Origin: Balanoglossus misakiensis
Lineage: Eukaryota > Animalia > Hemichordata
Length of the DNA: 64,000 nucleotides
Reading direction: 5' to 3'
NCBI GenBank assembly: GCA_040954595.2
Contig: CM082576.2
Span: 7,505,129-7,569,128, forward strand
The position numbers were made by a program, and so were the translations under genes. The notes beneath the pieces were generated by a model. That model worked only from the letters and a program-made list of their open reading frames with translations, made no database searches and was not told where the DNA came from. This document shows, in pieces, positions 3,116 through 40,950 of this stretch. Every line of letters starts with the position of its first letter. The stretch's first letter is position 1.

Positions 3116-3983
3116 TCGGAGTCTGCCCTCTAGTGGTAGGAACATAAGGAGCAAGCCAACTGGATGAATGGATTTTGAACGGCTAAAATGTCGTTTTCCA
3201 GAAGTAAAACAAATATATATTTATTGTATAAAAGAAATTCTAATATAACCATACACTATGAATAACATCCCTGTGAATAAGAAAATGTGGCTTGTAATGA
3301 AAAAAAAATGTCTTGGTTGTACACAAACCACAGAGGCAGTTCTCTCAGGAGTTTTTATTCACACAAAAATACTGCCAATAGAACAAAATTCTTGTTCATC
3401 TTTTTACGGAGGAAATTTATATAGACCTATTTAAATGTTATATCAATATTTGTATCTGTATTTATCTCAATAAATCTGATATGCATGGTAGTATCATGCA
3501 TATCAGATGCGAATACTGACACATCGGTGATAATCGTCTTTAAATTCTCTTAGCCATGAATCGAAAAAAAGTTATGATTTTATCTCGATCACACCTCTGC
3601 ACATTCCTCATGTGGTCTTTGCCTAAAGAAGCTGAAAACTGCAATAATAATCTTGCCGGTAACAAAAACTATGAAGTTACTCTTCCATACAAACAATAAA
3701 CACAAGCACACACTGCAGACTGTTACACATTTTTTAATGTACACTGTACAGTACAGATATAAAGGAAAGAAAAACGGGTCTGCCACAGCCAGACTGTTCA
3801 ATAAAATCCTAGAACAGTGGAAACCACAAAGACTAGCTTATGGTGCGCAAATGAATTGACATTCTCAGTGCCAGAGTAAAACTGATTTGTCCGTTGTGCG
3901 CCGATTCTGAAAAAAAGGAACAGGCGTTGCTCAATCTTTTCAGGTTGTTTCCTCCAATGAGGTTTTCACGTGCTTTATTGTAC

Positions 3984-4991: not shown

Positions 4992-6199
<1,208 letters not shown>

Positions 6200-8625: not shown

Positions 8626-9996
8626 ATGAACATTACATCTGTCTTTGAAATGGTGAGTTTTTCATGATAATTTTTTGGCATACTTTTGCCGTCTTTTCAT
8701 ATACATCTATTCCATTTATAAGTGTCAATAATTGTACATGTATTTGCGGTAAAAGAATGTCATTTTTTCTTGTTCGAAACGTGTCGTACCGGGCACTCGG
8801 AGGGGAAAGTGAAATTCGTCAACAGATGGCGCACTCCCTTACAAAACAATAACAGAAACGACCATGCGACTCCGGCAATAGATTACAATGCCAAAGTCCC
8901 GAACTATAAAAAAGAACTTAGTAAAATCTTTCATTTTAATAAGACCCACGGGAGGTACTGGTAACACATTTCATGATGTAATGATGGTGTGTGTTTTTTC
9001 TTTCTTTCAGGGTATACTAGTAATACTCTCATACATGGTCTCCATGACAGCATCTTCTCCAATATCACATCCTGAATCAAACTCGGCAGTGGATGTGGAC
9101 GAGAGTGACATTTGGCGACTGCACCTGGGTGACAGCGATCTCATCATTGGCCCCACTGCAGACGACGCCCTTAACAACCCGATGACGTCACTCCGTCAGT
9201 CAGCTGCCGTCCAGAACACCTCCCCGGAATCAGGTCGGCGGTCCAATCTGATGTCGGTACTCGATATTTACGACGAGGACGACGGAGAAGATGACGGCGA
9301 TGAAGGAATTTTTGACGAAGTGGAAATCGCGAAACGAAACACTGACACTCAGTCTCAAGCCGGGGCAACTTCACAGTGCAATTCAACTTTCAACGCGAAT
9401 ATCTCTTCATTCGGGACGACACCGGTGACCGGAGATGCGGACACGAGGATGCCGAGCACAACCATCGGCGGGCCTTGTATGGCCTTTCCCGAAGACTCGT
9501 ACGAATGCCCCGGTATTCTGCCGGTATACGGGGACGGCTACAATCTGCTGTCCACCTGCCCGTGGAAATACATCAACAATTACGACCCGAAACGGGAACC
9601 TATGCTGATCAAGAACGTCACCTGCCTGTGCGAAACGTGTCGATCGATTGACGTCACCCCGGAGGGCGAATTCTTGGCCCAAGAGATGATGATGTCTACG
9701 TGTGCAGCTATTCACTTTGACGTGGCTGTCTTAAGATGGGACGATTACACGAGAAGGTAAGAAAGCACTTGGAAAAATAGTAGATTTATTCATACGTGCC
9801 GTTTTGAAACTACATTTTTTCGGATACAAAGCATTTCGTTGATATTACATTATCGCTTTTAAAGCAAATGTACAATTATCACCCACTAAAATAACTTTTT
9901 CTCTCTCTCTCTCTCTTTGTTAGTGGGCCAGCAACACCGGGAACTGAACGAGTAAACGTCGGATGTACCTGTCTACGCACAAATTATAGAAGATGA
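8626..9996 (+). CDS. IL17: Interleukin-17 family cytokine precursor (~281 aa, 3 exons)
   Basis: Exons are 8626-8652 (MNITSVFEM), 9011-9756 and 9924-9996. The N-terminus is a hydrophobic signal peptide. The C-terminal cystine knot carries IL-17 hallmarks: STCPWKYINNYDPKREP, CLCETC, C...VAVLRW and ERVNVGCTC. Confidence 0.9.
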
Positions 9997-11202: not shown

Positions 11203-11400
11203 TCACCTTCGAGTATAATCATCCCACTTTAAGACGGTCAGATCAAAATGATTGGTTGCGCGTGCTGACACCTGCGCCACCCCAGGGAGAAACGTTCCCT
11301 CCCACGAGACAAGTTTCGCACAGGCAGGTGACAGACCGATTCCTGATCGAGTCCTTTTCCCGCTTCGGGTCGAAACTGTTGATGTATTTCCACGGCCATT
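11203..11400 (-). pseudogene. Degenerate inverted IL-17 paralogue
   Basis: The - strand reads WPWKYINSFDPKREKDSIRNRSVTCLCETC and then, in another frame, HFDLTVLKWDDYTRR followed by GT at the same donor position as the intact gene. The DNA clearly aligns to 9556-9758. It has a frameshift, a CPW to WPW change, and no clean VGCTC exon. Confidence 0.85.
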
Positions 11401-12856
11401 CAAGTTTTATATTTGTCAAACGCTCACACGCTCTCTCTCTCTTCCCCCTCCCCACCCCCTCTCTCCGTCAAACTTGCAAAGAAATGTGCCACATCATGTT
11501 TAATCGATTTATGAACCCCTGACGAAGCCAATGCTGAAAGATCATCCGTCAATATCACAATCGGTTAAGTTTTTGCTCTCTAAATTTGATACCTTAATTT
11601 TTGTTAAACCCTCGCGGGTAATTAGACTAGCCTAATCGTCCCATCATGCTGGCGCTTATCAATTATAAATGGCACATGACCCTGAAGTGGCCGTGGGTGT
11701 AGTGAATTGTTCAGTTCCAATTTGACACTCCCTGTGGTTGACTCACTGCCAATGTACACGGTCCGCTGGTCGTCAGTTGCCATTTCGTGCTGTGCTTCTA
11801 CTGAGTGAAAATGACAAAGAAGTGTCTGGGAAAAATATTCCATATTCGCCGTCACGTCATCTGATCCACGTTTGTCAGCGCATAATTGCTGCAAATACCG
11901 ATCAAGGAAATGTTCACACCGACTATTATACTCCAAGAAAACAGGAGTGCGACTTTACTTTTTTTATAAAAAAATAATTATTACATTTTTTTTCTGATAA
12001 CCAAAATAAGTTAAGTGGCCTTCAGCTAAATTACTCACCACGGAAATTAAATAAAACTAATGGGGCGTAATGTGGAACGATTTTTAAACAACGTAGCAGC
12101 TGCCTAAGTTCCTCGGGGACTCGGAAAATTTTGAACTTCGGTCTGGTTCAATTGACGCGCCCGTGCCCGGCGGCTGTATCACTCACTGTCGCAACGAGGG
12201 ACCGTCGTGTGAAATGGAAAGTATCGAATAGAAATTTGCCGCTTGGTCCACTAAGTCGAGGCATGGTCAGTCTGTGCGTGTGAATGCATTTTGCCGCCAT
12301 TATGATCCAAGACGAAAATATACAAATCTATAAGAGTAATTAATCATGCACTCATGATGGTGTTTATCGCATTATTTGATTTGTTTATCTGGAAATTTCC
12401 TTCCGATTCTCACAAAGGTTCACTCTCAGGTCGTAGCGATAGCGTTATCTTAAAGATGTACTACAACGATGCAGACCTGCTGACCTTTCCGGAAGAGTTT
12501 AGTACAATAGGCAGATAGTGATCCATCGTATTGCTCGTGGCTCCGGCCAAAAACAACAACACCGTGACTGGGGGCGGCGCAAGTTGATAGTAAAAAATAT
12601 TGGAACTGTTATGCTTGACTGACTTATCGACGATCGGCAATACCGGTAATTAGCGCGATAATAATCAACTATAGGAAATTAGCTCATCTGATATAGTTAG
12701 TTGTCCGTGATCTGTCACTCACGGTATCTCCACATTGTTTGGGCGATAATCTGGGACTGTTCAGTCCTATATATATACAGGCTGATCTCTCGCCACTAGA
12801 AGCAAACACCCGGAGCTGCCTGCATATTTGTTTCTCGCACCGTATAGCGCTTTCAG

Positions 12857-17765: not shown

Positions 17766-20700
17766 CTAGCACCATCCCGATGTCCACACCCCTCCGAATC
17801 GCTCAGGGTCGGACGCGTCGGGGTCTAGATCCGGTCTTATCGCTGGAACTAGCTTCTTCTTCAGTTCCTGCAGTCTCGCATTCAGTTGCTTCACTTTGTC
17901 TGGCATTTCCGTGGCTAGATTATGATGTTCAGTGGGGTCGTCTGTGAAGACAAAAAATATCTTAAACAGAGTTGGTCTATGTTATGGACTGGCGTGTGTT
18001 TATGTGTGTCTGTCTGTAGGCTATGATTTATCGGACAGTCACAATGTGCATGATACATGTAATATACAGAGTAATAACCCAAACCTCTTATGTTAAACAG
18101 ATACGTCGCGTTCCACGGAGCCGGTCGAACTCCCGCCTTCTCTCCATGTTCATCCAAGGAGAAAATTTCTTCCCATGCACCGTCCGCTTTCGGAACGGGA
18201 ATCCAACCGTCTGTAGTATAAAAGAAATGCGCTGTTAATGAAAACGCCGGAAACAATGCCTCAAAATTTTGAGATTACATAAAAAGGGCTTGGTTACCTT
18301 ACCTGGATTACCGGCCTTGCCCACGATCAGCTTAAAGTCGCCAACCCTGTCATGAAACGCATAATAAAAGAAGCATAAGTTTGGTTGAATTCGTAGAGCT
18401 ATAGAGAAATATGATCCCAGTTCCTTGGGGTGTGAAATTATATTAGTCTATCTCCAACAGCAGCAAAATCTTCTGAATATGCAATGATCATTCACTGGTA
18501 TTTCATAAACATTTTGTAGTTTTGTTTTTGTTCGTCACTCGTCTGTCATGACAGAGAAGATCGGATCATCACCTTATAGCCGCACCCGGAGGGTCTACTT
18601 CGACGATGTTGTAGACAAACTCCTTTCTTGGTGAAGGACTGCCTCTTGAGAGAGTTTCCCAGACACTCATTCCATCCATGTCAGGGTCTACACGTTTAGA
18701 AAAAATTTAAAGTTTTGATTTTTTGTTTGGGGCTTTGGTAATGAAGAAATCTGATAATACTTTATAATGTTCCTTCCTTACTTGGTTTTCCGCCAGCAAG
18801 TTCCAGCAACGTTGGGTACCAGTCGACCGCGTGCATCATTCTGCGAAATGAAGATTGATAAAAACCGGGCAAACAACCACATGTTTACGAATTTCGCTTC
18901 ATTTCGAGACGAAAAGTTTTTTTTTTTTAAATGCCAACAAGTAAGATTTTGTCCAAAGGTCTATAAGGCGTACAACCGGATGGGTAACACTGGCAGCTGA
19001 TATACGACGACTAACATATAGTTCAACTTACTCTTCATTGACATAGGCAGTCTTTTGAAGGAGATTTCCACGGACGAAAGCCACACCACGTGTTCCACCT
19101 TCCCATAATGTTGTCTTTGAGCCTCTCAGGGGCCAGTTATTTCCGGCCACATCTTCTTCGGCTGGACCTCCGTTCTGTGTACACATAATATATTTGAACG
19201 CATTATGTAGTTAGCCAGTGTTCTGGTTGTTTTGGGGACGTACACAGACAATGTAATAAAGTGAGTTAAATTTTATGTTTTCGCTGACAGTGTGCACATA
19301 ATGCCTTAACTTGTATAAAATGAACTGGTCAGTTGCGAGAATTTACATGAAGTGAGAAAATGTACATGTATATACTAGCAATACTCACATCAGTTGTAAA
19401 TACAAACAGCGTATTATTCCATAGTCCGTGTTTCTGAAGATTTGTAACCACGTGTTTGACTGCGTCATCCATGGCTGTTATCATTCCTATTGGATGAAGT
19501 GAGAGGTTTTTTTCTTAATGCGCGGTCGTGTGTAGTGCGGAAGCACAGTCCCTCCACACTGTGGCTAAGTGATATATTCTGGGGTGTTTCCTTGAGTCGA
19601 TTCTATCTCCCCATATAAAATGTCTGTATGGTCGTCCCTCCCCCCTCTCTCTCTCCCTCCCTTCTCCTCCTTTCCATATCTCAGTCTATCTGTCTGTCTG
19701 TTCATGTATCCGTCTTAGTAAGTGAATTGAGTCGACGCGTTTCGTTCTCTGTAGACATCTTTAACATTCCGACACTTGCCTGATTTTATTCGCCTGTTTG
19801 TATCCGGTACGTTCGGATACATGTCCAAATACTTCTCTGGCACCTGTTTGGAACGATCACAAAACGGTCTGTAACACTTCTCATGATGCGTATTACAATG
19901 TAATTGTAATGAACATATAAACTTCCGAGAGATTGATTAATAAACCGATGAGGCATACCTGTACAGGACCGTGCACACTTTGAAATGAAAGATACATGTA
20001 CATCGGCTTATCTTTGTTGTGTTTTGCGATGTACTCTTCCGCTTTCTCTGTAAACACATACTGAAACAACACAAGAGGAAATGAAGTAATGAGTAAAATG
20101 AACGAAAACGTCCATTAAAAAATCATTCTACTTTATACCAAATTCACGGTGCCCTTTCAAAGATCATCATCTAAAAATAGTCCACATTTTTCTTTTAAAC
20201 GTTAACAACCAGAGAGTATGAAGTTTTTGTTGTTTCGTTGTTCGAAAAAAAAGTTTGCCTGGGACTGCAATTTTTTATAGCAGAGTGCATCAGAAAAGTG
20301 CATCAGAGGAGAGCGACTTACACTGGAGTAAGTGCCGTTTCTCGTCCAATCAGGGACTTTGTCTTCTCTTAGGTCCAGATATCCCTCTGAAAATGGCGAT
20401 ATTAGATTCATATTCCTGATTCCATTTTATTCTTCATCAGTTAAAAAAAGTTATCATCATTACTTCAGATTATTTATATCTGTTATCAAGTCACATGATT
20501 AATTTACATATTTTTTTTTCACATGAATCCTAAACGACAAATTCGGATCATCAATATAATGTACATTGCCGGGCACGGTCAACACAGGAAATTAAGACAT
20601 ACCGCATTCATGTGTGAAATAATCTTCAAGTCCATTGTAGTAACCGTAATAGTGGTCGAAGCCGCGTGCGTTCGGTGTGTAATCCCATTTGCAGAAGCCT

Positions 20701-22036
20701 AAATGCCACCTGTAATGGGTTGAAAATATTATGAGCTATCTTATAATAATTTTAAAATTGCGAAATTTTATGAATCTGTCAAATTACTAAATACGCCAGT
20801 GCAAAAGGGACAATTCACAAAAAATGAAAAAATGTACTAACTTTCCAATCATGTACGTTGTATAACCCTGCTCTCTCAGCTGATGCGGCAGAAGTGTGAA
20901 CTTGAGGGGAAGTCCCGCCGGTTCCTTTGCTGTCAAGACTTTATACTGGAAGTGGAAGAAATCGCATTGAAATATTTCCAGGAAACACACAAGAATCAAG
21001 TTGAATGTAGAATTTATATTAGAAAATGGTTTTATACAGGCAAAGGAGAAATGACACGATAACAAAGACACTCACTTGCAAACCGACTCGGTGCGGGTAG
21101 TATCCGCTCATAAACGCCGTCCTGGTTCTGAAATCAGCATGAAACGGGCATAAATGTTTTACATCCTGCATCACGTTGTCAATATTACATTATTTATGCT
21201 TTAAAATTTTGAAATATCTACAAAGACTCACGGCGTGCACATTGGAAGAACGTAGGATTGGCTGAGAATGACGCCCTCTTTGGCCAGTCCATCCAGAGTG
21301 GGAGTGATGATGTCATCGTTGTTGTAACCGATGTCATTCCAACCTGAAAAAAAGAATTACCTCAACGTCAATTAGGGTTTGGAACTGTGCGCAAATGCAG
21401 CAGTTCCTGACTGCAGAATGATTCCACCAGCTAATGTTTGGGACTGCTGTTTTGATATTGTATAATGTCAACAGCTGACTCCAACTAAAAATAAAATCAT
21501 AAAGTCTATATTGCGCAATTTACATTTCGGATTTTCTTTTTCAAGGCTTCGCTTGTTTTACAGTACCAGAAATATACTAGAGAACATTGCGTTAGTTGAA
21601 AATACACAAGATTTTATCAACGCCCTGAATTGCAGGTGTTACGCGATGCGTCATTAGTGTTTCACCTTTTAAAGAATATTTTTGATTATCTTCATGCAGC
21701 TAGTCTCTGAAGCAGCCTTCTATGCGCCTGACAAACATAAAGAAGCTGCCAACGTAAGTAACAGACTTTGCAAATTAAAATGTTTTTACCTAATTTGATA
21801 ACCAAAGATGACATGTTGCCAGAATGGTGTTCGACACGGTTTATGGCAAATGCTGCAAACATTTCACTCCGCTAACCAAGGTCAATCTGTCTACCTCATA
21901 GGGTCCAGGGGCTACAGGTATACTTACCCAAATCGTCGGCAACGACGAACACGATGTTTGGTTTCTCGACTTGACGTTCGGTGACATGCTGGCCGAATGT
22001 GAACTGAACAACCGCTAAAAAGACACACAGCTTCAT
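17766..22036 (-). CDS. ARSB: Arylsulfatase B-like sulfatase (15 coding exons)
   Basis: Exons (- strand): 22036-21928, 21343-21232, 21127-21076, 20945-20842, 20709-20603, 20386-20322, 20060-19959, 19843-19780, 19486-19389, 19174-19032, 18840-18782, 18687-18573, 18346-18303, 18210-18085, 17941-17766. Motifs: signal peptide, PNIVFVVADDLGWND, catalytic CTPTR (CxPxR formylglycine site), GKWHLGFC, TDNGG, NWPLRGSKTTLWEGG and C-terminal GVWTSGWC*. Exact orthology among ARSB/ARSI/ARSJ is not established. Confidence 0.93.
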
Positions 22037-22298
22037 TGTGTCACTGCTCGCAATAACCAGCAGACGAAACTTTATAACTAACTGGCCTGACGACAGAAAG
22101 TGTCTAATTAACGCGAGGTGTGTCGCAGTTACGGCCGTGAATAAACCCTCAATGACTCATTACACTGTGATTTCAATAGAAATTTTATTTTAAAAATTTT
22201 ACCAGCTGTTACTGCGCGCGTGATTTGATGCCCAGGGTAAACAAAAGCGTGTTGTGTGGTTTGATATAATAGCAATTGTTTATATTAAATCTTGCTCG

Positions 22299-23140
22299 AT
22301 GTTTGTTGCGGTATACCCCGATGACTGCGAACACAGAAAAGAAGGTAAATACTGATCAACTATGTGTGGCAAAGAATGAACTTGAAATTTCACTGAGCAC
22401 AGTAACCATCCTGATAGGCTTCCCCCAATCAGAAGTACCAGTATATTTTCATGAAAATATCCTGTATCTTAAATTAAAAAGTGAGCATTTTGCATAACTT
22501 CAGAAAAAAGGTTATATTTACAGGGAATTGACGATATGTATGACGATATTGCAAACAGCTATATAAAAGTTATATTATTAAAGTGGATTTTGTTAGGTAA
22601 GGATTACAATATACCGTATTTATACCATTTTTTTATGATTTCCTTTGATTTTGGTTTCTATCAACAGTGCTGCCAGATGCTGTTGTTGTTCGTAAGTATT
22701 ATTTTCACAATCACCAAGATCAACCCAAATCGAGATTTTCGTTGCTCTTTTCTGAATTTACATATTCAATTTGTATTTGACACTCAAAACATTCCAAAAC
22801 CATCTCATGTGTTTTTCTACCCTGTCACGTCCATAACAACACAGGCAAAGAAGTAGCTCAGGCAGTCGATATCGTCCGAGATAAGTTGAACCCAGAAAGA
22901 TGGAAATCCCTTGCTCCGCACCTTGGCATTCCGGACCACGCGGCGCGAGCGATCGATCTGGAGATCCCTGACCTGGACGGGAAACTCTGGCAGATGCTCG
23001 AACGATGGAAAGACAGGTTTCAGGTGGGAAAGGACGTCATCAAAGTACAACTGAGTAAGCTGGTCAAGGCACTGCAGGTGATCGGAGAGTCAGAACTTGC
23101 CGGCGAAGTCTCAAGGGTCAGTGTCGACAACACCGAGTGA
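22299..23140 (+). CDS. Small death-domain-only protein (~113 aa, 2 exons)
   Basis: Exon 22845-23140 encodes KEVAQAVDIVRDKLNPERWKSLAPHLGIPDHAARAIDLEIPDLDGKLWQMLERWKDRF...LSKLVKALQVIGESELAGEV, a death-domain pattern (WK.LA..LG, ML..W, L..AL..IG..ELA). A phase-compatible first exon is 22299-22344 (MFVAVYPDDCEHRKE, donor GTAAAT); this exon is less certain. Confidence 0.75.
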
Positions 23141-26169: not shown

Positions 26170-29100
26170 ATGGGATTCTCCAATTTCTCAAAAGTTCCAA
26201 GGACAATAACTTTGTTGATGGTAGCATTTGCATTGCTTGCACCTCGTACTTGCCATACTGCTGTGCTCCTCAATGAACTCAACGCAGACAATCCTGGAAC
26301 AGATGCTGAAGAATATATCGAACTCTACAACACAGCAGACCAGGCAGTTTCATTAGAAAATTACATTGTGGTTCTCTACAATGGAAATGGTGAAACTGCC
26401 TATGAAGTCATCACTTTTAGCAGCAGTTCCAGTATATCTGCCAAGGGTTTCTACGTGATTGGATCGACCAATGTTGTTCCTCCACCAGATGTTCTTCTTG
26501 GCGACACAAACATCATACAGAATGGAATCGATGCAGTTGCTCTGTACTTTGGAGACACTTCTAAGTTCACCATTGGTATGAGTGTTACCAATGACAGTTT
26601 GGTGGATGCTATTGTTTATGACAATGGTGGTGACCATGACGACAGCAAACTCATCGATGTTCTTACCCCAGGACAGAGGACTTTGCATGAGGATTCCGGT
26701 GGGGATGACGTAGATGAATCTTTGAGTCGATGTGTTGGTACAGATCCATTGACTTTGTCTCAGTTCTTGTTAACTCCACACACACCAGGCTCTTCAAATG
26801 ACTGCGCTCCCACGACGATCATCTTGAACGAGTTGAATTCTGACAACCCAGGTACGGACCAGGCAGAGTTCATTGAACTCTATAACACAGCTGATTCAGT
26901 GATGAGTCTTGACAACTATGTGCTGGTGTTCTACAATGGAAATGATGACAATAAAGCTTACTTGGTAATAGCCCTGAATGGAAGTATCCCAGGCAACGGT
27001 TACTATGTGATTGGATCAGCATTGGTCGATCCAATGCCAGACCAAATTCTACCGGGTGATGAACACATCTTGCAGAATGGAGTTGATGCTGTGGCTTTAT
27101 ACTATGGGAGTCCGTCACTTTATACAGTTGGCATGATTGTGACAACAGACAATCTGGTAGATGCGATAGTTTATGACAAAAGTGGAGGTCATTCAGACAC
27201 CTTGACTAATATTCTTACCCCAGGTGAACTGACATTACATGAAGATGATGACATGTTTGATTTTCCTGATGAGTCTCTCGGCCGATGTACCGGGAATGAT
27301 CCCAGAATTCTTTCTCAGTACTGGGTGGGTCCAATAACACCTGGCTCTGACAACAACTGCAGTTTTCCCAATCCAACTGCGTTGCCAACTACTCCAAGAC
27401 CAGTCACCTCAGCAGCTGTGCTCCTCAATGAACTCAACGCAGACAATCCTGGAACAGATGGCGAAGAATATATCGAACTCTACAACACAGCAGATCAGGC
27501 AGTTTCATTAGAAAATTACGTCGTGGTTCTCTACAATGGAAATGGTGAAACTGCCTATGAAGTCATCACTTTTGGCAGCAGCTCCAGTATAGCTGCCAAA
27601 GGATTCTACGTGATTGGATCATCCAATGTTGTTCCTCCACCAGATGTTCTTCTTGGTGACACAAACATCATACAGAATGGAATCGATGCAGTAGCTCTGT
27701 ACTTTGGAGACACTTCTAAGTACACCATTGGTATGAGTGTTACCAATGACAGTTTGGTGGATGCTATTGTTTATGACAACGGTGGTGACCATGACGACAG
27801 CAAACTCATCGATGTTCTCACTCCGGGACAGAGGACTTTGCATGAGGATTCCGGTGGGGATGACGTAGATGAATCTTTGAGTCGATGTGTTGGTACAGAT
27901 CCATTGACTTTGTCTCAGTTCTTGTTAACTCCACACACACCAGGCTCTTCAAATGACTGCGCTCCCACGACAGTAATCTTGAACGAGTTGAATTCTGACA
28001 ACCCAGGTACGGACCAGGCAGAGTTCATTGAACTCTATAACACAGCTGATTCAGTGATGAGTCTTGACAACTATGTGCTGGTGTTCTACAATGGAAATGA
28101 TGACAATAAAGCTTACTTGGTAATAGCCCTGAATGGAAGTATCCCAGGCAACGGTTACTATGTGATTGGATCAGCATTAGTCGATCCAATGCCAGACCAA
28201 ATTCTACCGGGTGATGAACACATCTTGCAGAACGGAGTTGATGCTGTAGCTTTATACTATGGAAGTTCCTCACTTTATACAGTTGGCATGACGGTGACAA
28301 CAGATAATCTGGTTGATGCGATAGTGTATGATAAAAGTGGTGGTCATTCAGACACCTTGACAAATATTCTTACCCCAGGTGAACTGACATTACATGAAGA
28401 TGATGACATGTTCGATTTTCCAGATGAGTCTCTTGGCCGATGTACCGGAAATGATCCCAGAATTCTGTCTCAGTACTGGGTGGGTCCAATAACACCTGGC
28501 TCTGACAACAACTGCAGTTTTCCCAATCCAACTGCGGTACCAACAACTCCAAGACCAGTCACGTCAACTGTGCTCCTCAATGAACTCAATGCAGACAATC
28601 CTGGAACAGATGGCGAAGAATATATCGAACTCTACAACACAGCAGATCAGGCAGTTTCATTAGAAAATTATGTCGTGGTTCTCTACAATGGAAATGGTGA
28701 AACTGCCTATGAAGTCATCACTTTTGGCAGCAGCTCCAGTATATCTGCCAAAGGATTCTACGTGATTGGTTCGTCCAATGTTGTTCCTGCACCAGATGTT
28801 CTTCTTGGCGACACAAACATCATACAGAATGGAATCGATGCAGTTGCTCTGTACTTTGGAGACACTTCTAAGTACACCATTGGTATGAGTGTTACCAATG
28901 ACAGTTTGGTGGATGCTATTGTTTATGACAACGGTGGTGACCATGACGATAGCAAACTCATCGATGTTCTCACCCCAGGACAGAGGACTTTGCATGAGGA
29001 TTCTGGTGGGGATGACGTCGATGAATCTTTGAGTCGATGTGTTGGTACAGATCCATTGACTTTGTCTCAGTTCTTGTTAACTCCACACACACCAGGCTCT

Positions 29101-32100
29101 TCAAATGACTGTGCTCCCACGACAGTCATCTTGAACGAGTTGAATTCTGACAACCCAGGTACGGACCAGGCAGAGTTCATTGAACTCTATAACACAGCTG
29201 ATTCAGTGATGAGTCTTGACAACTATGTGCTGGTGTTCTACAACGGAAATGATGACAATAAAGCTTACTTGGTGATAGCCCTGAATGGAAGTATCCCAGG
29301 CAACGGTTACTACGTGATTGGGTCAGCATTAGTCGATCCAATGCCAGACCAAATTCTACCAGGTGATGAGCACATCTTGCAGAATGGAGTTGATGCTGTG
29401 GCTTTATACTATGGAAGTCCGTCACTCTTTACAGTCGGTATGACAGTGACAACAGATAATTTGGTTGACGCGATAGTGTATGACAACAATGGTGAACATT
29501 CGGACACCTTGACAAACATTCTTACCCCAGGAGAGCAGACGTTGCATGAAAATGACTTCTTTTATGACTTTCCTGATGAGTCACTCGGCCGATGTACTGG
29601 AAATGATCCAAGAATTCTTTCTCAGTATTGGTTGGGGCCAATAACACCTGGCTCTGAGAACAACTGCAGTTTCCCGAACCCAACACAGTTGATCCCAACT
29701 GTTTCTCAAATGAGTACTCTTCCTGAAACAAGTACCGAACAAACAACAGCACCAGGTCCAGTTTCTTCACCCGTCATCATCAACGAGCTTAATGCCGATA
29801 ATCCCGGAACTGACGACCAAGAGTTCGTCGAGTTATTCAACACGGGTGACAACCCTATCCAGCTGGACAACTACATCTTGGTTTTCTATACAGGCAGCAG
29901 TGACACAGCCTATGCCGTTGTCCAGTTGCCAAACGGTCAGTCTATTCCTGCAGGTGGTCACTTCGTCGTTGGATCGAGTAACGTGAATCCCACACCGGAT
30001 CTGATCCTGAGCGGCAGCATATCAGTTCAGAACGGAGAAGACGCAGTGGCGTTGTACTACGGCAATCCTTCGCGCTATTCTGTCGGCATGTACGTCACCA
30101 ACAGTGGGCTGGTTGACGCCATCGTCTACGATAACAGCGGTCAGCACGATGACACGCTGACGGATGTGCTAACACCTGGTGAAGAAACCCTCCACGAGGA
30201 CTCTAACCACCTGGCGAATGATGAGAGTCTGAGTCGCTGCGGCGGTACCGACCCTTTAAAGTTGTCCCAGTATGCCCTCACTGCGCCAACGCCGGGCACG
30301 GCCAATTTGTGTAACAGCACCCTTCCGTCCACTCCAACTGTGGTCGTGCCGACTCTTGATCCAGCACTGCAGCCGGACGTTGTCATTAACGAGTTTGACG
30401 TGGATGCTGCCAACCAGTTTATTGAGCTGTACGACGGTGGAGTTGGTGGGACTGCGTTAGATGGTTTGGTCCTGGTGCTGTACGATGGACTTTCCAGCAC
30501 TGTCTACTGGCATTACGACCTGAACGGCTACAAGACCGGTCCAGGCGGCTACTTCGGGGTCGGCACCAGCCAGCCCAACTGGACTCCAGACATCGCACTC
30601 ATGCCGGACATCATTAAGAGGGACGGTATCAATGCAATAGCTTTGTATTACACACCAGCATCTAATGTGTCACCGGGCACAGCGGTGACCAACCAAGACC
30701 TAGCCGATGCTCTGGTATACTCGTCAACAGAAGGTGATTTCAGTAACCACCCGCTCACCTCAACCCTCACACCAGGTCAGGATGTTCTCACGGAAGACGA
30801 AAGCATCTCTCAAGAGGAGGGCTCGTTCAGCCGTTGCCGGGGATGGCGTCTGCTGCTCATTTCATCCTTCATGCAAACCACTGCCACCCCCAGCTCGAGC
30901 AACAACTGCACCCTGCCGGCCGTCGTGTTGAACGAAGTCAACGTTGCTCAGTCTGGCCAGACCGTCCATAATTACGAGTTCATCGAACTTTACGATGGTG
31001 GAATAGGCCGTCAGAGCTTAGACGGTGTTTTGGTCGTCTTTTACAACGGAAACGGTGATGTGTCGTATCTTACAATAGACTGCACTGGATATAGCACTGA
31101 TGCTGATGGGTACCTCATAATAGCGGCTGATGTAGACAGCACCCTCGACCCGGACATCACAGTTCCGTATAACCCACAAGGATTTATCCAGAACGGTCCA
31201 GACGCAGTTGCTCTACACCTGGCCCCTCCGCAGCAGTTCCCTACAAGCACACCAGTCACTGACATCAACCTGATCGACGCAGTCGTCTACGGCACCAACG
31301 ACAACCCCGATCTGCAGCTGCTGGATGCACTGTTGCCCGGGCAACATCAAGTCAACGAAAACTCCAACTTCAAGCCGGAAGACCACAGCATCAGCCGGTG
31401 CGAATGCTGCCAGTCCCTCAATTCCTCCGCCTTCGGCTTGGGTCCGGTGACGCCTCGTGGTCTCAGCGTCAACTGCACCCGGAACAATGAGACGGTGACG
31501 GAGACCGTGCCCGTCTTGCAAGACCTGCTGCGGATCTACGAGGTGAATGCCGACCAGGAAGGTGATGACTTGCATGAATTTATAGAGCTTGGCAGTCCGT
31601 ACAAGTTTGTGTCATTAGATGGCATTGTGGTGGTTCTGTACAGTGGTGGAGATGACAGGTGAGATCAGAATTCAGCTACGTATATGGGAAAATGATCGGA
31701 AAGTGAATATTTGGGCAAACCCTATGATTTGCTCTTTTATGTTAGAAAAAATTCCAATCTCTTAAGGATTATAACTTTACAATGAGTTGGTGGAGTAATA
31801 TGGCAAACAGTAGCGTTTTGAAATAACTTTTGTTTTTCACACCTTCAGATATTTTCAACATATATGGAATGTCACAACTCACTAAATAAGTCTAAGCATT
31901 AATTGATAATGAAAATGATTGACTAATTTTGATACTCTTTGTGTTACAGATCATACAGGACTTTTGATTTGACTGGATACCAGACCAATGACAAGGGTTT
32001 ATTTGTAATAGGGTCTACAGCCATTACCCCAACACCAGATATAGTGGTCAGTCAGCAAGCTTGGATTCAAAATGGACCTGATGCTGTCGCCTTGTACAAG

Positions 32101-35100
32101 GTAATCTAACCAAGGCTTTTACATTGACATTTGTTACATAATTACTTCATGTTACTCCACAAATGGATGTGAAAGATAGTACCTTCTATTGTCAGAACAA
32201 TTAAGCTTTTGGACTATTGACAAGACCAAAATATTATTTCACAAAACTCTTGCCAATAGATACGTTTTATTAAAAAAAAATTTAATACCAAAAGCCCAAA
32301 ACTCCAAAGAAAACCTATACTTGACTCTTCTGGTATGTTGAGCTGCTTGACATAATTCAAAATGGATAACATGCTGAGTGTAATAATTGTCTTTATGTTT
32401 CTTATGTATGTGTATATTAGGGTGTGGCCACAGACTTCCCAATGGGCACGTATGTGACAGATGAAAACTTACTTGATGCAGTAGTGTATGGGACAAATGA
32501 TAAAATGGATCAAGAATTATTAGATGTGTTATCTCCTGGACAGGATCAAATCAATGAAGATTGGGATCATCATACAGGTACAGAGTACTTACGTATTCAG
32601 TGTCATTTTTGAACAGTATAGAAACTTGGCTCTTTCAGCAAAAATAAGAGAAATCCAACTGTTTCATGTACAAGTTATGGTAAATGAAGAATTTTAATTG
32701 GATTTTCCCAAATAATTGAAGACATTTTTGAAAACTCTTGTATGCTGTTATGTTGTTGTAATCATTAGCAATTGATGGTTTTGATTGATTGAACAGGTGA
32801 TGAATCCATCATTCGGTGCTATTCCAACAATGCCATAGATCTGATGGCTTTTACGCTGGGACACCCATCACCTGGTGCGCTGAACACTTGTCCATTGCCA
32901 CCACTTGTTGTCAATGAAATCAATGTAGATCAGGCTGGAGCTGATAAGGCTGAATATATTGAGCTACGCAGTCTTGACAGAGCTGGGTTTCCTCTCAACA
33001 ACCTTGTTGTGGTGAGTCTAATGGGTGTGGTTGTCAATCATAAAATGAAGTGGATGGATGCAGCCATATCTTTGTTGATAACAGTCATTCCTCAGAATGA
33101 AATATGATATCAGAATTTTAATAACAGTAGTTACTGTATTTTCTTACGGACTTGTAAGTTATGTCTGTTCACTGACCTACATGTACTGTACAAACACCAT
33201 GATACCAATTACCTGATTGGAAAATCATAACACTGTCAATTTGGTCTGGCAACTTGAACCTGCAAAGTTCATCTGACAGTTAATATTGACATTATGATTT
33301 TGTTTTTTTTTGTCGCTACTCATTATTATAGGTCCTTTACAATGGCAAAACTGACCTGTCCTATCGGTCAGTTGGTATTGATGGTCATCGCACGGACAAC
33401 AACGGACTCTTCCTAATCGGCTCCGACCAGGTGTCTGTAGTCCCCGATCTGATTATCAATGCGCCGGCCGATGGTTTCATCCAGAACGGCCCTGATGCAG
33501 TGGCTCTCTACTCGGGCACCGAAGCCGATTTCCCAGACGACACGTTCGCTACAAACGACAGTTTGATCGACGCTATCGTCTACGCCACTGACGGAGATCC
33601 GCCGGCCCAGTCGCTGGTCGATATATTGACTCCCGGTGGAGAGCAAGTGATCGAGGATGATCGGTTTCACTACGGCGACGAGTCCATCAATCGCTGCGAC
33701 GGGGACGCCGGTGACGTCAGAATCGTTGTGTCTCATTTGTCTCCCAAGATGAAGAACATCTGTCCGCTGAGTGGCAATGTCAGTCTCATCGTCAATGAAG
33801 CTGGAGTGGTGCAAAACAACAACTTTATTGAAATCTGGGACGATGGATATGGTGAAGCCCTACTTGGTAAGTCTGCAAGGGGCAACAAATGGATTGAAAT
33901 GTGGGAACACTTTTCTGACCAAAGAAAGTATTTGTGTGGTGTGTGAGCATTTACTGCATTTACCATAAATGAGTTTTTTTGTACATATTTTTTTTTACAG
34001 ATGGCTATGTCATTGTGGTTTACAATGACAATGATGAGTCCGTCATTACCTTCGATTTGACTGGGTACACAACGAACCAGCAAGGCTACTTTGTGGTGGG
34101 GTCAGACAGTGTCCAGCCAGGAATGGTGGTGGATCAAGGTAAGATGTCATGAAACCATGAAGAGTCTGTTTATTCAGGTATCACAATAAGAGTGCTCATA
34201 ATGAACCGATTGGTTTATGTGAAGAACCTCAAGGTCTGTTCTCATAGCTTAAAGCACGAGTGCACCTGGTGTGCACCTGTTTGAAGTGTTTGACGAAGCA
34301 ATTCATCTGTCAAAGACAACCCTGTGAAATTGCTTCTTGGGTGTACATTTATGTAAATAATAAAGATGTAATTATAATTAAATGCGGTTTTATAAGTATG
34401 CAAATAAAATTGTACTGTCCATCTGTTTGTATATCAAATTTGTCCAGACGACCATACTAGCCAATCACTACTGAATGTGCAATCTTCCTTTGGACTCTCA
34501 GATTTCCTACCAATGCTGAATGGTGGCATTGGCGTGTACAGAGCCCCAGCCTCACAGTTCCCCAATGGTACATCGGCTACTGCAGAGAATATCGTAGATG
34601 CACTTGTGTACAGTCAACAGGGTAACTCTGCTGATAGTCTGGCAGAAGTGTTACTCGGTACCCAAGCTGCTGAACAGGTGAGTCTATTATCTAAAAAAAA
34701 ACTGTGAGAAATGCATTAAGCTAAACTGAAATATTAAAAACATATATATGAGAAATTAAACAGTGATCAGGGCAACAGAGCAAAGTTTGGGAGATATTGT
34801 GAGCATACCTTGTAAAGTAAAATTTAAGTGCAGGTGCTATCTGATTGTTCCAAAATAAGGACCAGCTTGATCTGAAAATGAAACACTGAAAACTTAAGTG
34901 CAATTGTCTGTCACCACTCCCACCAACAGGTGAATTCTGATGCTGTACAGACTGGCAGCAACACCATCAGTAGATGTCTGTCAGGCAACACACGAGACTC
35001 AGCAGCTCATACTGCAGGTGTCAGCAGCCCAGCATCTCTCAACAAGTGTCCTGTGTACAACACTGACATCATCATCAGCGAACTCAATGCAGACCAGCCA

Positions 35101-38100
35101 GGAGATGACGACAGAGAGTTCATCGAACTCTATGACGGTGGCCGGGGCAACAGTTTGCTGTCCTATCTCACTCTGGTGATGTACAACGGTGGTGGGTTGG
35201 ATAGCTCGTACATGGCTGTGAATCTGGATGGGTACTCGACCAACTCTGATGGATATCTTGTCATTGGATCCAGTAATGTGCAGCCAGGTAAGAGAATCCA
35301 CTCGGAATTTGAGTGATGATTTGCGCACCAGTTTGAGTTAAGAGTAAGTGTATCACAAGAAAATCATCCCAATTTATAAAACAAACTTTCTAAATGAAAT
35401 AACTTCACCAGCCCACTGGGATTTCAATCTATTTCAGCTGCAGATATTGTACTCAGTTCAGAGAATGGTGGCTTTCTGCAGAATGGACCAGACGCCATCG
35501 CCATATACCGCGCTCCGACCACAGCATTTCCGTACGGCACACCAGTTACTGATGTCAGTCTCCTAGATGCTTTGGTTTACAGCACCAATGACCAGGTGGA
35601 TCAAGTTCTTCTCGACACACTCACACCAGGTCTGTGACAAGGGATGTTCATAATCATTCATCATCTCCATTTGCTAAGTTAAATTTAAGGCTTGGATGCA
35701 TTTTTCATATTGTATTCTGAAAGGCCACTTAAGAAAACTTGTTTAATTCAAGTAGTGGAAGAATTATATTTAGTGGAGGGCGTGTGTGCAGATATAAGAT
35801 GTATGTTTGTTGTGTCTGCCTTTCTTCACAGGGGGAAATCAAGTCAAAGAAACTGCAGATGCCACTGGTAATGATCAGAGTATCAGTCGTTGTTATGGCA
35901 ACACGAGGTTCGACACATCAAGCTATATACTGGCTGCTCCAACGCCAAAGGCCAACAACAGCTGTCCAAGCCCTCCTCCTCCAGCTGAAGGTGAATAACT
36001 TGCATCATTGTAGGCCCTATGCTTGTATTGAGAGATTGTATCTATTAATACTCTGTGTACATTGGAATTGGCCAATTAGGGTGCAAAGTTCATTTCATTT
36101 CTGAATTTGCCTACAAGCATCTATCTTATGTTTCCATAGTGTATCATCAGTACTGTTGAAAGGGTGAATCATCTTGAACAATCATCAGGCATTAGGGTGG
36201 GGTTCCATTTGTACAAGGATTAAACTACTCATCAAAGCAAACATCCTTAAGAATGTGTGAATACAAGAAAGAAGAGATAATGATATCACTTAATGTTTAA
36301 TATTTTGAGACGTACATCTCTGTATTGATCAAGAGATATGATTTGTTATCTGTTCTTGGCCAGACATTATCATCAACGAGTTGAACGCTGACAGCCCAGC
36401 TACAGACACGCATGAATTCATAGAACTCTACGACAAGGGCGTTGGCAATACTCCATTGGATGGACTCATTCTTGTATTCTTCAACGGTGCTGATGATGAT
36501 AAGTCATACTTTGAACTGGACCTCAATGGTTACAAGTAAGTTACCTTTGATTTTGCTAGTGAGAAAAGAAATAACTTTATTTTCAATGACAGATGCACGA
36601 CAGTTATAATGTATGGCAGATCAGTAAATTAAAAGAAATCGTTTATTATTTTTTTTTTCAGGACCAACAGCAATGGATACTTTGTCATCGGAAGTGACAA
36701 TGTTGTACCACAACCGGACATCATAGTTGACTTCAGCTTTCTTCAGAATGGCCCGGATGCAGCCGTCTTGTACAATGCCAACCTTGCAGACTTTCCTCGC
36801 GGCACCATGGCAACCAGTGACAACATGGTGGATTGTATCGTCTATGGCACCAATGATGACCAGGACGAAACTCTCATAGCGATCCTTGCCCCTGGACAGA
36901 TCCAAGTGAACGAGAATGACGGTCATCTCAGTCAAGATGAGTCTCTGTCCAGATGTCTGTCAGATGATGTGGTCAATTTGTTTGCATACATCGTCTCAGA
37001 GCCCACTCCAGGTAAATTCATGTCCTTTCCACAGGGTTCGTATTCTCCTGGAAACTCTTGGACTTTTGAATTACTCTGGGTGTATGTACTTTGATCTTAT
37101 AGCACATTTGTATTCGTGAAGACAAAAACAAAAAAACAAGAGGAAAACAGCAGCAGTTATTTCTATCACTGGGGGCGTTGCATGTGGGTATTTTGACTTT
37201 GAGGATCCACTAGATCAGGATACGTATTTCCACTTTAGCTTCAGGATCACTTGAGAAAAAGTCACAAACAAGAAAACCTCGTCAAGTCGTCAGGATGTAG
37301 GATTAAAACTATTTAGTCAAAAGGAATGTACACATGTTAATCTTTCCTTTCACAGGATCAGCAAACAACTGCACCCTGTCGACTATTGTGATCAATGAAC
37401 TGAATGTTGATCAGCCTGGCGTAGATGAGAAGGAGTTCATAGAGTTGTACGATGGTGGCAGAGGCTACACCTCCCTGGATTCGCTGATTGTGGTCTTGTT
37501 CAATGGACAGGACAATGACAAGTCCTACAGCACCATTCCACTGCAGAATTACAGAACCGATGGGTGAGGTTTTTTTGGCACGTGTGCCACTCACTAAAAA
37601 TTTGCAGTTGGCTATACTAACCAGTACATGTATTTAAATTTGCATAGGTAACCGTTTACACATGTACCTTGAAATGTACAATATGTATTCTATATACAAT
37701 TCTAATACAGTGGCCCTTGTGCTGTGGTCAACTTGCAGTGATGGTTACTTCGTCATTGGCGCTGAAGGAGTTACTGACTACGTTGACATCATAATCGATG
37801 CTGACAATGGGTTCCTGCAGAATGGGGCGGATGCCATCGCTGTCTATCGCGACGACCCCAGGAACTTTCCGGATGGCACCCTACCAACCCAGGAAAACTT
37901 GGTGGATGCCCTGGTCTATGGAACATCAGACAACAGGGACGACTCTCTGGTGGATGCTCTGTTGCCCGGGCAACACCAAGTTGACGAGAGTGCGGATTTC
38001 ATGGACGGAGACGAGAGCATAAGCCGCTGTATCTGTTGTGAGGCGTTACAGGCATCTGCGTTCGGACTGGGTCACCCTTCCCCCAGGGGTGCCAACAACT

Positions 38101-40950
38101 GCACTGCTGATGATGTCTACACCCCACCCCCGCCAGTGACGGTTAAAACCACTCCCCCGCCCAGCTTACCCCCGGTGGTCATCAACGAAGTCAACCCGGA
38201 CAACCCAAGCTACGACACCAGGGAGTTCATCGAACTCTACGGACCAGCGGGAACGGATCTCAGCAACCTGGTAGTGGTCTTGTACAACGGCAACTTGGAC
38301 CCTCCGACCTCTTACTACGCAGTTGGACTCGAAGGGCAGCAGCTAGATACTTTCGGCTTCCTGGTGATCGGCTCCGTCAACATGAGCCCCCCTCCGGACG
38401 TCTCGCTGCCGGATCAGGACTCCGGAATTATCCAGAACGGAGCTGATGCAGTTGCTCTGTACATGGCCACAGTGAAGGACTTCCCCAATGGTACTCCAGT
38501 CACCGACAAGAATCTGATAGATGCACTGGTTTATACAAACGACAGAACCAAAACGAGTCAGGCACTCTTGGATGTGTTGACACCAAACTATGACATATTT
38601 GTTGAAGATGACAGGTATGTGGATGTTCATTATTTCATTTTGTGTCTCATATTGCCCCTGATGGTTTAGTGATCATTTTACATTTTAATTTATTCTTTAG
38701 GGCAAATGGGAATAACTTGGCATAAAATTTACAGCTAGGACTTATCCATTTCATATTAATGATCATGATTGATATGCAGCCAATAATAGCGGTAGATGAA
38801 ACCCATAATTCAAACAAAAAGGGATAGGACAACACCTTACCCCGTTGTACATAAAATAGCCATAGAAATGTGCATATTCCTAACTTTGTGCTGCTACATG
38901 CATCATGTTTCTTCTCCATAGTGTACGATGTCCTCAGGACACTTACGGTTGTCAACAGGTGACATTCTATTCCAGAGTAGGTCTATTAGTATTAACTCAC
39001 TTTAAAACTGAGTCAATTATCTCACTGACTTTTAGTCTAGTACCTGGCCCTACATACGCCTTGGCATTAGACTAACTGACTCTCAACAGTAATATAATTA
39101 TTCATGACCTTTAAAAATACTGTAAGGATGACACAATATACTGTACATGTGCACTTAAGTCAATTTAGAGTCTTCTATGAAGTGGAAATGTCTGTAAATT
39201 TAGTGATAATTCCAGGGCTGGGTGTGTACTCATCACGCCCCTTGTTTTCACCCCACAGCTGGCACGGCACACAGGACGAATCCATCAGCAGATGCAGTTG
39301 CTGTGACAACAGGACCCCGGGGGTGTACGCCCTCTCCTTCCCCAGTCCCGGAACGCAGAACAACTGCCCGAGCGAGGATTACGCTCGGGACATCCAGATG
39401 AGACTCGTAGACGCTGACTGCGAGACGTGGCTGGCTGATGACAGGTACATGAATGCGTTGATCGATGAGATCGTTGCTGGCGTAGAGGAAGGATGCCAGT
39501 GTGGGTTTACTCCGGTCTACTTGCAAGGTGAGCTCATATCAATATGCGTCTTGTTTTGGTTGACATGTGTGATGATAGATGATAATTTCTGCTAACATTA
39601 TGAAGATTATACCCCAAAAACAGGTATCAATATAATTGTCTCCTTTGTAATTCACATGTATTGTTCAACCAACAGTATTTTTTCTAGAAGAATAGGTAAT
39701 TTACATAACAATTATCTTTTAATATTGCCATTGGGATTATTGATGATTGCTTTATATCAGACCAATAGTAATCTTGCAGGTGAAAGTCCCATATGACTGG
39801 GACGGGTAAATTGAATTTGGTATCAAATTTGGTAAGCCCTTATCAATTATCCTTGCATTGTTCCCATCCTCACTGTTCCTTCTTTCCTGGGAAGGTAGGA
39901 ATATGGAAAGGGAAAGTGACAGGGACTTGTCTGATTTTTCGGTTGTTGTGCAATCAGTGAAGTGTGTGTGAGGAATGAGAAGGACTGACAATTCTGTGTT
40001 GCTTCTGTTTTTAAGACTCCAAGGTGTTCTGTGGCAGTGTGGTGTACCAAGCCACCATGCTTGCCATGAACGAGGAACAGCGGGCGTACCTAGTCAACAA
40101 CTACACACGGTACATCACTGAGACAGAGGAAGTTGAGATACTGGGTGAAAGGTACGCAGTGGACAACCAGTGTGTTTGGGACTGTGTGCCTGATCCTGAG
40201 GCTGTATCTCAAGGTAAATAAAATCAATGTTGGTTATTGCACTTGTGGAAATACATTCAGTCATGAGTATTAAAGTCAGGAAAAATATCGAGATATTGTA
40301 CCGCAGTGAGAACAATTTTGCTCAGACAGGCACAAACTGGTTTCATATTTTTTTTTCCTGTCTCAGGTTTGTCTGGTGGGGCCATCGCAGGTATTGTGAT
40401 AGGTGTACTGGTGGCTGTGGTCCTGGTGCTAGCCATTGCGGTCTTTGTCATCAAGAGAAGGAAAGATGGGTCAGTTTGAGTTCATTTGAATAGGACACTT
40501 CTGTGAGACCTGAGTGACCTTCGTTCCGTCCTGGTGTTTTGTTGGTATGACATCAGACATTGAACAGCTTATTTCTCTCAAGAGTGATGGATACCCCATG
40601 AGAAAGCAATGCTTTGTGTGCATTTCTAAGCTCTGCTACCTGATGGATTTGCTGTTGAGTTGCATGTAGTTGTATGATCCTCGGGGGGTTTGAGTGAATC
40701 TAATATAAAGTCCACAGACCGTCGAGGATAATAAAACATCCTGGTAATTGCGGAGGGCCGTGACCTTGACTATTCATTCTTTTGTGCGCCATTAAGGAAG
40801 AATATTATCTTTATTTTCAGCTATGACAGGTATGCGTTTGACGACGGCTTCAAGATATCCAATGCCTGTGAGCTGGACAGCATAGCAGGAGGTGGAAACA
40901 TGCAAAGCTTTGACAATCCAGCCTATGAGTTTGGCAACTCCAAGTACTAG
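26170..40950 (+). CDS. ~3,291-aa type I transmembrane protein with 16 tandem lamin-tail-like (LTD) domains, a Cys-containing juxtamembrane domain, one TM helix and an FDNPAY-containing tail
   Basis: 18 phase-consistent coding exons totalling 9,876 nt: 26170-31658, 31950-32100, 32421-32577, 32797-33011, 33332-33866, 34001-34138, 34502-34677, 34930-35287, 35438-35629, 35832-35990, 36364-36535, 36662-37011, 37356-37563, 37739-38614, 39259-39527, 40016-40213, 40367-40469, 40821-40950. The protein has a signal peptide and 16 repeats of the pattern [VI]INE.N.D.PG.D..EFIELY...QNG.DAVALY...DA.VY...SRC...TPG..N.C. The TM is AIAGIVIGVLVAVVLVLAIAVFVI followed by KRRK. The tail ends QSFDNPAYEFGNSKY*. A probable 5'UTR exon ends at 23828 (GTAAGT), and the acceptor is at 26162. 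Confidence 0.9.
26263..29683 (+). repeat. Intragenic tandem triplication of a ~1.15-kb two-domain unit
   Basis: The unit starts (GTGCTCCTCAATGAACTC) at 26263, 27418 and 28570, giving periods of 1155 and 1152 bp. The DNA and protein are near-identical across the three copies. Confidence 0.95.

Follow-up and report, generated by a model that had tools for sequence, protein, structure and literature searches.

Dab1, Dab2, ARH and Numb have been reported to bind the FxNPxY tail signal through their PTB domains, and a CD8 reporter was internalised by FANPAY placed in an otherwise poly-alanine tail; a second tyrosine signal, YxxPhi, binds AP-2 and is common, being carried by 47% of human type I tails (PMC2882754). 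In the endocytic co-receptor amnionless, a SEA domain immediately precedes the transmembrane (TM) helix (PMC6283879), and the canonical SEA cleavage motif has been given as GSxxV (PMC9478142). In the bacterial nuclease ExeM, activity needs the EEP and YhcR-like domains and not the lamin-tail domain (LTD), removal of which slows the enzyme in vitro but leaves plate DNA clearance intact (PMC6085458), and DNA binding by LTDs has been proposed (PMC4486849). The type of system formed by a single-pass receptor with a repeat arm, a SEA domain and a tyrosine signal is already known. The gene described here, at positions 26170–40950 on the forward strand of a 64-kb stretch of the genome of the hemichordate Balanoglossus misakiensis (contig CM082576.2; the window), encodes a predicted type I (single-pass) membrane protein with a signal peptide, LTD-type repeats, a stalk, a TM helix and a tail. 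It is read here as a recycling endocytic (clathrin-cargo) receptor, an assignment considered to have a little better than an even chance of being correct.

The gene model has 18 exons with GT-AG boundaries at all 17 introns and a single stop (ATG at 26170, TAG at 40948–40950), giving a product of 3,291 amino acids (aa) with 14.4% Asp plus Glu, 3.4% Lys plus Arg, 27 sequons for N-glycosylation and no RGD. The closest homologue was the Ptychodera flava RefSeq protein XP_070578841.1 (81% identity over 2,082 aligned residues, from repeat 7 to the C-terminus), and all 17 junctions were colinear with this independent model and gap-free there, including those of the TM and tail exons. No second copy of the gene was found elsewhere in the window by tblastn. 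Full-length orthologue open reading frames (ORFs) of 1,056–1,097 aa from turtle, frog-like and galliform sources were found on 3.6–3.7-kb Logan contigs, suggesting that these are spliced transcripts that include the TM helix and tail. The spliced ~3,291-aa protein described in an earlier sequence-only reading was thus recovered, with its 16 acidic tandem repeats, its signal peptide (as a prediction) and its one TM helix followed by KRRK and a tail, ~50 aa in that reading and 48 aa here, containing FDNPAY.

FxNPxY arose in 0.04% of 20,000 shuffles of the window tail, and the shuffle chance of the motif per tail is <0.1%. FDNPAY and FANPAY show a single difference, at a free position. The non-vertebrate set comprised 33 sequences, 23 of them stalk-bearing and 19 of these with a full tail, and NPxY was kept in 17 of the 19, in 14 as FxNPxY, so that the motif is conserved in orthologues as the sequence-only reading required. 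The tails with NPxY come from a sponge (FENPYY), a brachiopod (FNNPLY), hemichordates, echinoderms and amphioxus; as some rows are close kin (several Branchiostoma, two Lingula), the independent count is these five phyla. Outside NPxY the non-vertebrate tail sequence diverges, and a second conserved patch, a Phe followed by a C-E/Q-L-D/E-D-L-like stretch, lies upstream of the motif in hemichordates and echinoderms. No catalytic or death domain was found in the tail. In the vertebrate set (109 sequences, 97 with a tail of at least 20 aa) the tails are short, mostly ~23–28 aa, and Yxx[IM]E occupies a fixed place in 95 of the 97 and NPxY occurs in none. The endocytic reading is favoured most because two distinct known internalisation signals appear each to have been held under selection.

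A profile built from the window's own repeats identified 16 full units of ~180 aa each. Pfam LTD (PF00932) matched exon 1 in nine stretches at 287.6 bits (cut-off 34.3; E 6.6e-87), so the LTD matches anticipated earlier were obtained above cut-off, but they span just the first ~100–125 aa of each exon 1 unit. The complete ~180-aa unit, beyond the Pfam LTD part, is common to animals and prokaryotes. The 12 window repeats tested share 37–53% identity with their best presumed-prokaryotic match over the full unit and 40–56% with their best non-hemichordate animal match, versus 15–17% over ~100 residues with lamin tails (Z 7–8 in structure comparison), in agreement with the original assignment to a bacterial-type LTD and not a lamin tail. 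A nuclear lamin or intermediate filament protein was rejected, the window protein having no filament domain, a signal peptide and TM helix, and a match of ~100 residues only. The conserved Cys pair is present in 96–100% of animal repeats versus about one third of those in prokaryotes, and 85–100% of invertebrate and prokaryotic repeats retain the polar profile residues N4, E5, E20, D114, R154 and N177. Five of the six inter-repeat gaps of at least 18 aa are at least 50% Pro/Thr/Ser, as expected of the Pro/Thr-rich linkers previously described, but the other 9 of the 15 gaps are merely 4–9 aa long.

Repeats 7–16 pair one-to-one with P. flava repeats 3–12. Among the A copies or the B copies of repeats 1–6, aa identity is 92–98%, and the copies differ by 15–48 bases. 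As these differences are mostly synonymous (more synonymous than non-synonymous codons in 6/6 pairwise comparisons), they represent real recent duplications. Within exon 1, GC content at third codon positions changes from ~0.40 in repeats 1–6 (26266–29775) to ~0.63 in repeats 7–9 (29776–31530), and the CpG observed/expected ratio changes from ~0.5 to 0.7–1.0.

A GTDB scan with one pattern returned 511 matching stretches, of which 79 loci were kept, including Bacteroidota, Chloroflexota, Acidobacteriota, Planctomycetota, Gammaproteobacteria and others. A nuclease-domain query was matched by 67 of the 93 presumed prokaryotic relatives listed, and three bacterial nuclease-domain queries matched 0 of 33 animal proteins at E≤0.01. 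The NCBIfam ExeM model matched exon 1 at its positions 7–129 of 884, the LTD part (138.6 bits; cut-off 1300), and the ExeM/NucH catalytic domains (EEP, YhcR-like, endonuclease I) are absent; together with the Pfam scan, these searches bear out the earlier statement that no catalytic domain is apparent. The nuclease association in bacteria and the slower action of ExeM lacking its LTD fit a non-catalytic binding role.

A quick, unrooted maximum-likelihood tree was built from 177 repeats (117 animal, 58 presumed prokaryotic thinned from 184 at 62% identity, and two unplaced), leaving out window repeats 3–6 and animal repeats below 90 bits. A single branch parted the prokaryotic rows from every animal row, with support of 98 in the Shimodaira–Hasegawa-like approximate likelihood ratio test (SH-aLRT). 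In a half-length tree, 57 of the 58 prokaryotic rows fell on one branch (SH-aLRT 96) and one fell with a Sycon repeat. One dividing branch fits a single animal origin before the sponge–bilaterian split, and the module was probably acquired once from bacteria before that split. As the tree is unrooted, the bacteria-to-animal direction is drawn from the breadth of the module in bacteria, and the tree sample is compatible with non-animal eukaryotes as carriers. Sequence P0337 (1,142 aa, divergent Cys-paired repeats) has one repeat with the prokaryotes and the other among the animals on a long branch; it could be from a non-animal eukaryote or a bacterium, and its source would matter for tracing where the module came from.

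Fold models were made of vertebrate orthologues, not of the window protein's own chain, using coelacanth P0031 (73 sequences; mean predicted local distance difference test score, pLDDT, 79.7) and the vertebrate C-terminal fragment P0251 (82 sequences; pLDDT 84.0), and were compared with 48,161 chains using VIA-align. Foldseek matches for the 1,103-aa model were spurious multi-domain matches (TM-score ≤0.13) and were discarded for VIA-align. The repeat is predicted to be one beta-rich domain, an immunoglobulin (Ig)-like sandwich. Its top match was Bacteroides BT_1938 (DUF4876) with Z 12.6, root-mean-square deviation (rmsd) 4.5, 181 residues aligned and 13% identity (Z 10.9, rmsd 3.2, 162 aligned in a second search), followed by lamin B1 (Z 7.9, rmsd 3.0, 103 aligned), and no enzyme was found among the matches above Z 6.3. 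The repeat profile matched no PDB sequence at E≤10, and Pfam DUF4876 was not among the matches listed for the window exons or proteins scanned, the link being structural. DUF4876 proteins are proposed substrate-binding lids of TonB-dependent transporters (bioRxiv 10.1101/2023.03.17.533168), and iron depletion is reported to induce DUF4876 loci 3.5- to 214-fold (PMC10434189); a connection of the repeat with iron is a lead only.

The Cys-containing stalk of the sequence-only reading is present, but the orthologue models and fold matches indicate a folded domain, predicted to be SEA-like. Its top matches were the MUC16 SEA domain (Z 9.2, rmsd 5.0, 114 aligned; Z 9.0, rmsd 3.2, 105 aligned) and that of GPR126 (Z 8.9, rmsd 2.9, 97 aligned); SEA domains lead at Z 8.8–9.2, with unrelated ferredoxin-like folds at Z 7.7–8.2. 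An ESM Atlas comparison of an amphioxus stalk was uninformative (top score 0.75). No Pfam SEA match was listed up to E 10 for 9 + 8 proteins, a search in which HMMER filters can miss divergent SEA domains, and the assignment is made because the fold, the juxtamembrane position and a G-S turn combine. G-S is found at the turn in 20/20 bilaterian invertebrate stalks and 0/4 sponge-type stalks, and anywhere in 9/231 other stalks, mostly vertebrate. GSVVY in the window fits GSxxV (x = V/I) at positions 1–4 and has Tyr at the fifth, where Val is present in 0/24 invertebrate stalks; autoproteolytic cleavage at this site is possible.

On its domain layout, the window protein belongs to the uncharacterised zebrafish si:ch211-183d21.1 family, having tandem extended LTD repeats with the Cys pair, a SEA-like stalk and a single TM helix. 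The sequence-only reading found no match to a characterised animal receptor; no known receptor module was identified here either, but the family is already annotated, though uncharacterised. Databases label the vertebrate members as uncharacterised 'LTD domain-containing protein', and a PANTHER family is presumably named after the zebrafish gene. Members were found in homoscleromorph (Corticium, Oscarella) and calcareous (Sycon) sponges, in the brachiopod Lingula, Saccoglossus, Ptychodera, all five echinoderm classes and Branchiostoma, and in ray-finned fishes, coelacanth, lungfish, amphibians, reptiles, birds, platypus and echidna, with repeat number varying from 4 to 16. No cnidarian, arthropod, nematode or mollusc was named among the matches listed. 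A platypus query returned 105 proteins of 587–1,869 aa, led by echidna (86%) and then turtles (43–44%), and no marsupial or placental was named among these 105 (best 7,991 candidates scored; fragments not searched). Of three vertebrate-like rows, two group with birds and the third has a frog-type tail. Loss of the family in therians is likely, not proven.

Two Oscarella paralogues (P0019, P0376) have a Frizzled cysteine-rich domain N-terminal to repeats and a TM helix and are stalk-less; these fusions are a possible Wnt-binding variant. Branchiostoma carries stalk-less paralogues (P0002–P0006, P0250, P0261) alongside a stalk-bearing orthologue with FDNPLY, and the stalk-less Hypp7364, 7365 and 7367 are likely a tandem cluster. 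A literature search that covered neither subscription journals, most supplements nor LOC416755 as a term found no functional study of the family, only one row of an expression table (PMC6423051) and one genetic-map listing (PMC3098391). LTD mentions in PMC9229212, PMC11083954 and PMC11431876 were unrelated or unidentifiable, and the hemichordate genome paper (PMC4729200) has no mention in its main text or two of its four supplementary files. No description was found of the ectodomain module, its bacterial affinity, the switch from NPxY to YxxPhi or the apparent therian loss.

For an endocytic receptor, the repeats would form a long multivalent arm, probably Ca2+-stiffened at the conserved acidic N-terminal loop, that would capture basic or cation-bridged macromolecules. 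Adaptors of Dab2/ARH/Numb type would recognise FxNPxY and bring the receptor into coated pits, AP-2 and YxxI/M would do so in vertebrates, and in acidic endosomes the cargo would be released and the receptor recycled; in invertebrates, G-S cleavage in the stalk may shed the arm. In this scheme the binding of Ca2+, the identity of the cargo, its pH-dependent release and the shedding of the arm are all proposals. Given endocytosis, and by judgement rather than data, soluble or yolk-type proteins are tentatively the leading cargo and extracellular DNA or nucleoprotein a possible one; iron-carrying ligands and microbial surfaces are equally unlikely, and other cargo less likely still. A bolder proposal, doubtful as a whole, is that this is an unrecognised pan-animal class of endocytic receptor dating from the sponge–bilaterian ancestor, with a bacterial surface-capture module grafted onto SEA, TM and NPxY that would harvest cargo of the bacterial-module type (extracellular DNA, iron-loaded ligands), use YxxPhi in vertebrates, and have been lost in live-bearing mammals and therefore never studied.

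Several observations weigh against an endocytic role or its favoured cargoes. NPxY is missing from a member in Strongylocentrotus purpuratus and one in a crinoid, and from all nine tails of stalk-less invertebrate paralogues, four of which have an FxNxxY-like motif. Cytoskeletal and signalling proteins with PTB domains are also anchored by NPxY, examples being the integrin beta tails and APP. Mucins and adhesins just as typically show SEA domains, Pro/Thr linkers and a repeat number that varies. YxxPhi is weak alone because of its frequency among human type I tails, the DUF4876 likeness is at 13% identity and a fold in common shows no function, and the ExeM LTD is unneeded for plate DNA clearance (PMC6085458). 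Given the strong acidity of the repeats, any binding to DNA would depend on bridging cations. Finally, the zebrafish orthologue is ~1,000-fold depleted (log2 fold change -10.3) in retinal macrophages versus other retinal cells, placing it within the top 50 macrophage-depleted transcripts of the retina (PMC6423051 Table 2), a finding that speaks against scavenging by phagocytes.

The main rival, possible but clearly second to endocytosis, is an adhesion or glycocalyx spacer of dystroglycan or transmembrane mucin-like type, in which the arm would bind matrix or cells, the SEA-like domain would be a cleavable or force-sensitive fuse and NPxY would anchor a scaffold. The leading stalk matches to MUC16 and GPR126, the invariant turn G-S of bilaterian invertebrates, the five Pro/Thr/Ser-rich linkers with 27 sequons, the recent triplication of a repeat pair and the enrichment of the zebrafish orthologue in non-macrophage retinal cells (PMC6423051) are all consistent with a spacer. 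However, FxNPxY in its entirety, upstream Phe included, has persisted in five phyla and vertebrates swap in another endocytic motif, the canonical Val of GSxxV is present in none of the 24 invertebrate stalks and G-S itself is missing from the four sponge-type and nearly all vertebrate stalks, RGD is absent, and 9 of 15 linkers are <10 aa. A signalling co-receptor or decoy (Kremen-like) that would clear a secreted factor or receptor, making endocytosis regulatory and not nutritive, is improbable. The Oscarella Frizzled-domain paralogues, the retinal expression (PMC6423051) and the small, fixed four-repeat vertebrate protein point towards it, but neither the window protein nor any stalk-bearing member scanned has a Frizzled or other ligand-specific module, and 16 recently expanded repeats suit avidity over a single ligand site. 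Repeats that are themselves catalytic, such as a nuclease from a bacterial donor, are very improbable: the highly conserved polar residues and the prevalence of nucleases among bacterial carriers would suit an ecto-enzyme, but the nuclease queries matched none of the animal proteins, ExeM activity depends on its EEP and YhcR-like domains (PMC6085458), and the Ig-like sandwich gave no better enzyme match than Z 6.3. An artefact (bacterial contamination, a recent transfer into this lineage, or a model with splicing or assembly errors) is barely credible despite the 5.5-kb intron-free exon 1, repeat identities of up to 53% to bacterial units and the 12 repeats of the P. flava model versus 16 here, given the 17 colinear introns, neighbouring genes of animal type (histones, IL-17, death domain), orthologues that span sponges to monotremes, the 117 animal repeats on one side of the branch and the chiefly synonymous divergence of the added pairs.

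Feature coordinates are collected in Table 1. The intron in the histone H4 gene suggests a replication-independent copy.

Table 1. Features of the receptor gene and neighbouring genes, by position in the window
Feature	Position	Strand	Basis or remark
Exons 1–6	26170-31658, 31950-32100, 32421-32577, 32797-33011, 33332-33866, 34001-34138	+	GT-AG, open frame
Exons 7–12	34502-34677, 34930-35287, 35438-35629, 35832-35990, 36364-36535, 36662-37011	+	GT-AG, open frame
Exons 13–18	37356-37563, 37739-38614, 39259-39527, 40016-40213, 40367-40469, 40821-40950	+	GT-AG, open frame
Predicted signal peptide, aa 1–31	26170..26262	+	Hydropathy (peak 1.64) and equivalent orthologue N-termini
Repeats 1–6, A-B pair ×3, recent triplication within exon 1	26263..29667	+	P. 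flava model has one pair
Repeats 7–16, ~180-aa bacterial-type LTD modules	29773..39367	+	Acidic; conserved Cys pair each
Region holding SEA-like stalk (predicted)	39368..40191	+	Orthologue models, fold searches, alignment
GSVVY at stalk strand 2–3 turn, aa 3155–3159	40033..40047	+	Candidate SEA autoproteolysis site, imperfect GSxxV
Single TM helix, aa ~3221–3243, then KRRK	40384..40452	+	Hydropathy peak 3.49
FDNPAY (FxNPxY), aa 3279–3284, in 48-aa cytoplasmic tail	40909..40926	+	Sequence, orthologue conservation
Lys/Arg-rich 262-aa open frame	2327-3112	+	Adjoins histone genes; no Pfam match
Divergent H2A-like gene	~3990-4870	-	Apparently intron-containing; head-to-head with H4; Pfam Histone and H2A_C
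Histone H4 gene	5602-5781, 6068-6199	+	One GT-AG intron; canonical 103-aa product
IL-17-like gene	8882-9757	+	Pfam IL17, E 2.9e-07
Second IL-17-like exon	11246-11467	-	Convergent; similar motif by eye, no Pfam match
Arylsulfatase-like exons	~17770-22160	-	Weak Sulfatase and Sulfatase_C matches below cut-off
Death-domain ORF	22781-23137	+	E 4.5e-08; ~3 kb upstream of receptor gene

If the endocytic reading is correct, this would be a further architecture for large animal endocytic receptors, beside the LDL-receptor family, cubam and the lectin and scavenger types, a rare instance of an animal receptor family that began with a module from bacteria, and a receptor built on a domain without an assigned function in bacteria or animals. 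Once a ligand is known, the extended LTD of thousands of surface proteins in bacteria (6,472 clusters, E≤0.001) would likewise have an assigned role. Function can be tested directly, since annotated orthologues exist in zebrafish, Xenopus and chicken. The apparent loss in therians and not in monotremes makes this a candidate egg-layer gene, a link that is only a lead.

Among known systems, the LDL-receptor family (LDLR, megalin/LRP2) is similar in its large acidic repetitive ectodomain, single TM helix and FxNPxY tail, but the window ectodomain is not homologous, and neither the scanned window exons nor the complete P. flava orthologue gave an LDLa, EGF or YWTD module. The tail motif of cubam (cubilin and amnionless) is FxNPxF. 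Cubam likewise has an extended arm of repeated beta-sandwiches, a SEA domain immediately in front of the TM helix (PMC6283879) and a tail signal of the PTB-adaptor type (ARH/Dab2), whereas in the window protein the arm, SEA-like domain and tail are in one chain and the repeats are of LTD and not CUB type. SEA mucins and dystroglycan (MUC1, MUC16, IMPG2, DAG1) share the juxtamembrane SEA-like fold predicted here, the G-S turn and some Pro/Thr-rich linkers, but the window ectodomain consists mostly of folded domains and not Pro/Thr/Ser tracts, and has GSVVY and not GSxxV. ExeM/NucH and the type IX secretion system extracellular nucleases have the full 180-aa unit in common with the window protein at 37–53% identity, but the window and other animal proteins have no nuclease domain, and the Cys pair is fixed in animals. 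BT_1938 is the best fold match found across the whole repeat unit, though only 13% identical to the animal repeat. The orthologous zebrafish si:ch211-183d21.1, Xenopus MGC145260 and chicken LOC416755 have the same repeat, stalk, single TM helix and short tail with a tyrosine motif, but vertebrate members have four repeats, usually two stalk domains and YxxI/M, whereas the window protein combines 16 repeats with a single stalk domain and FxNPxY.

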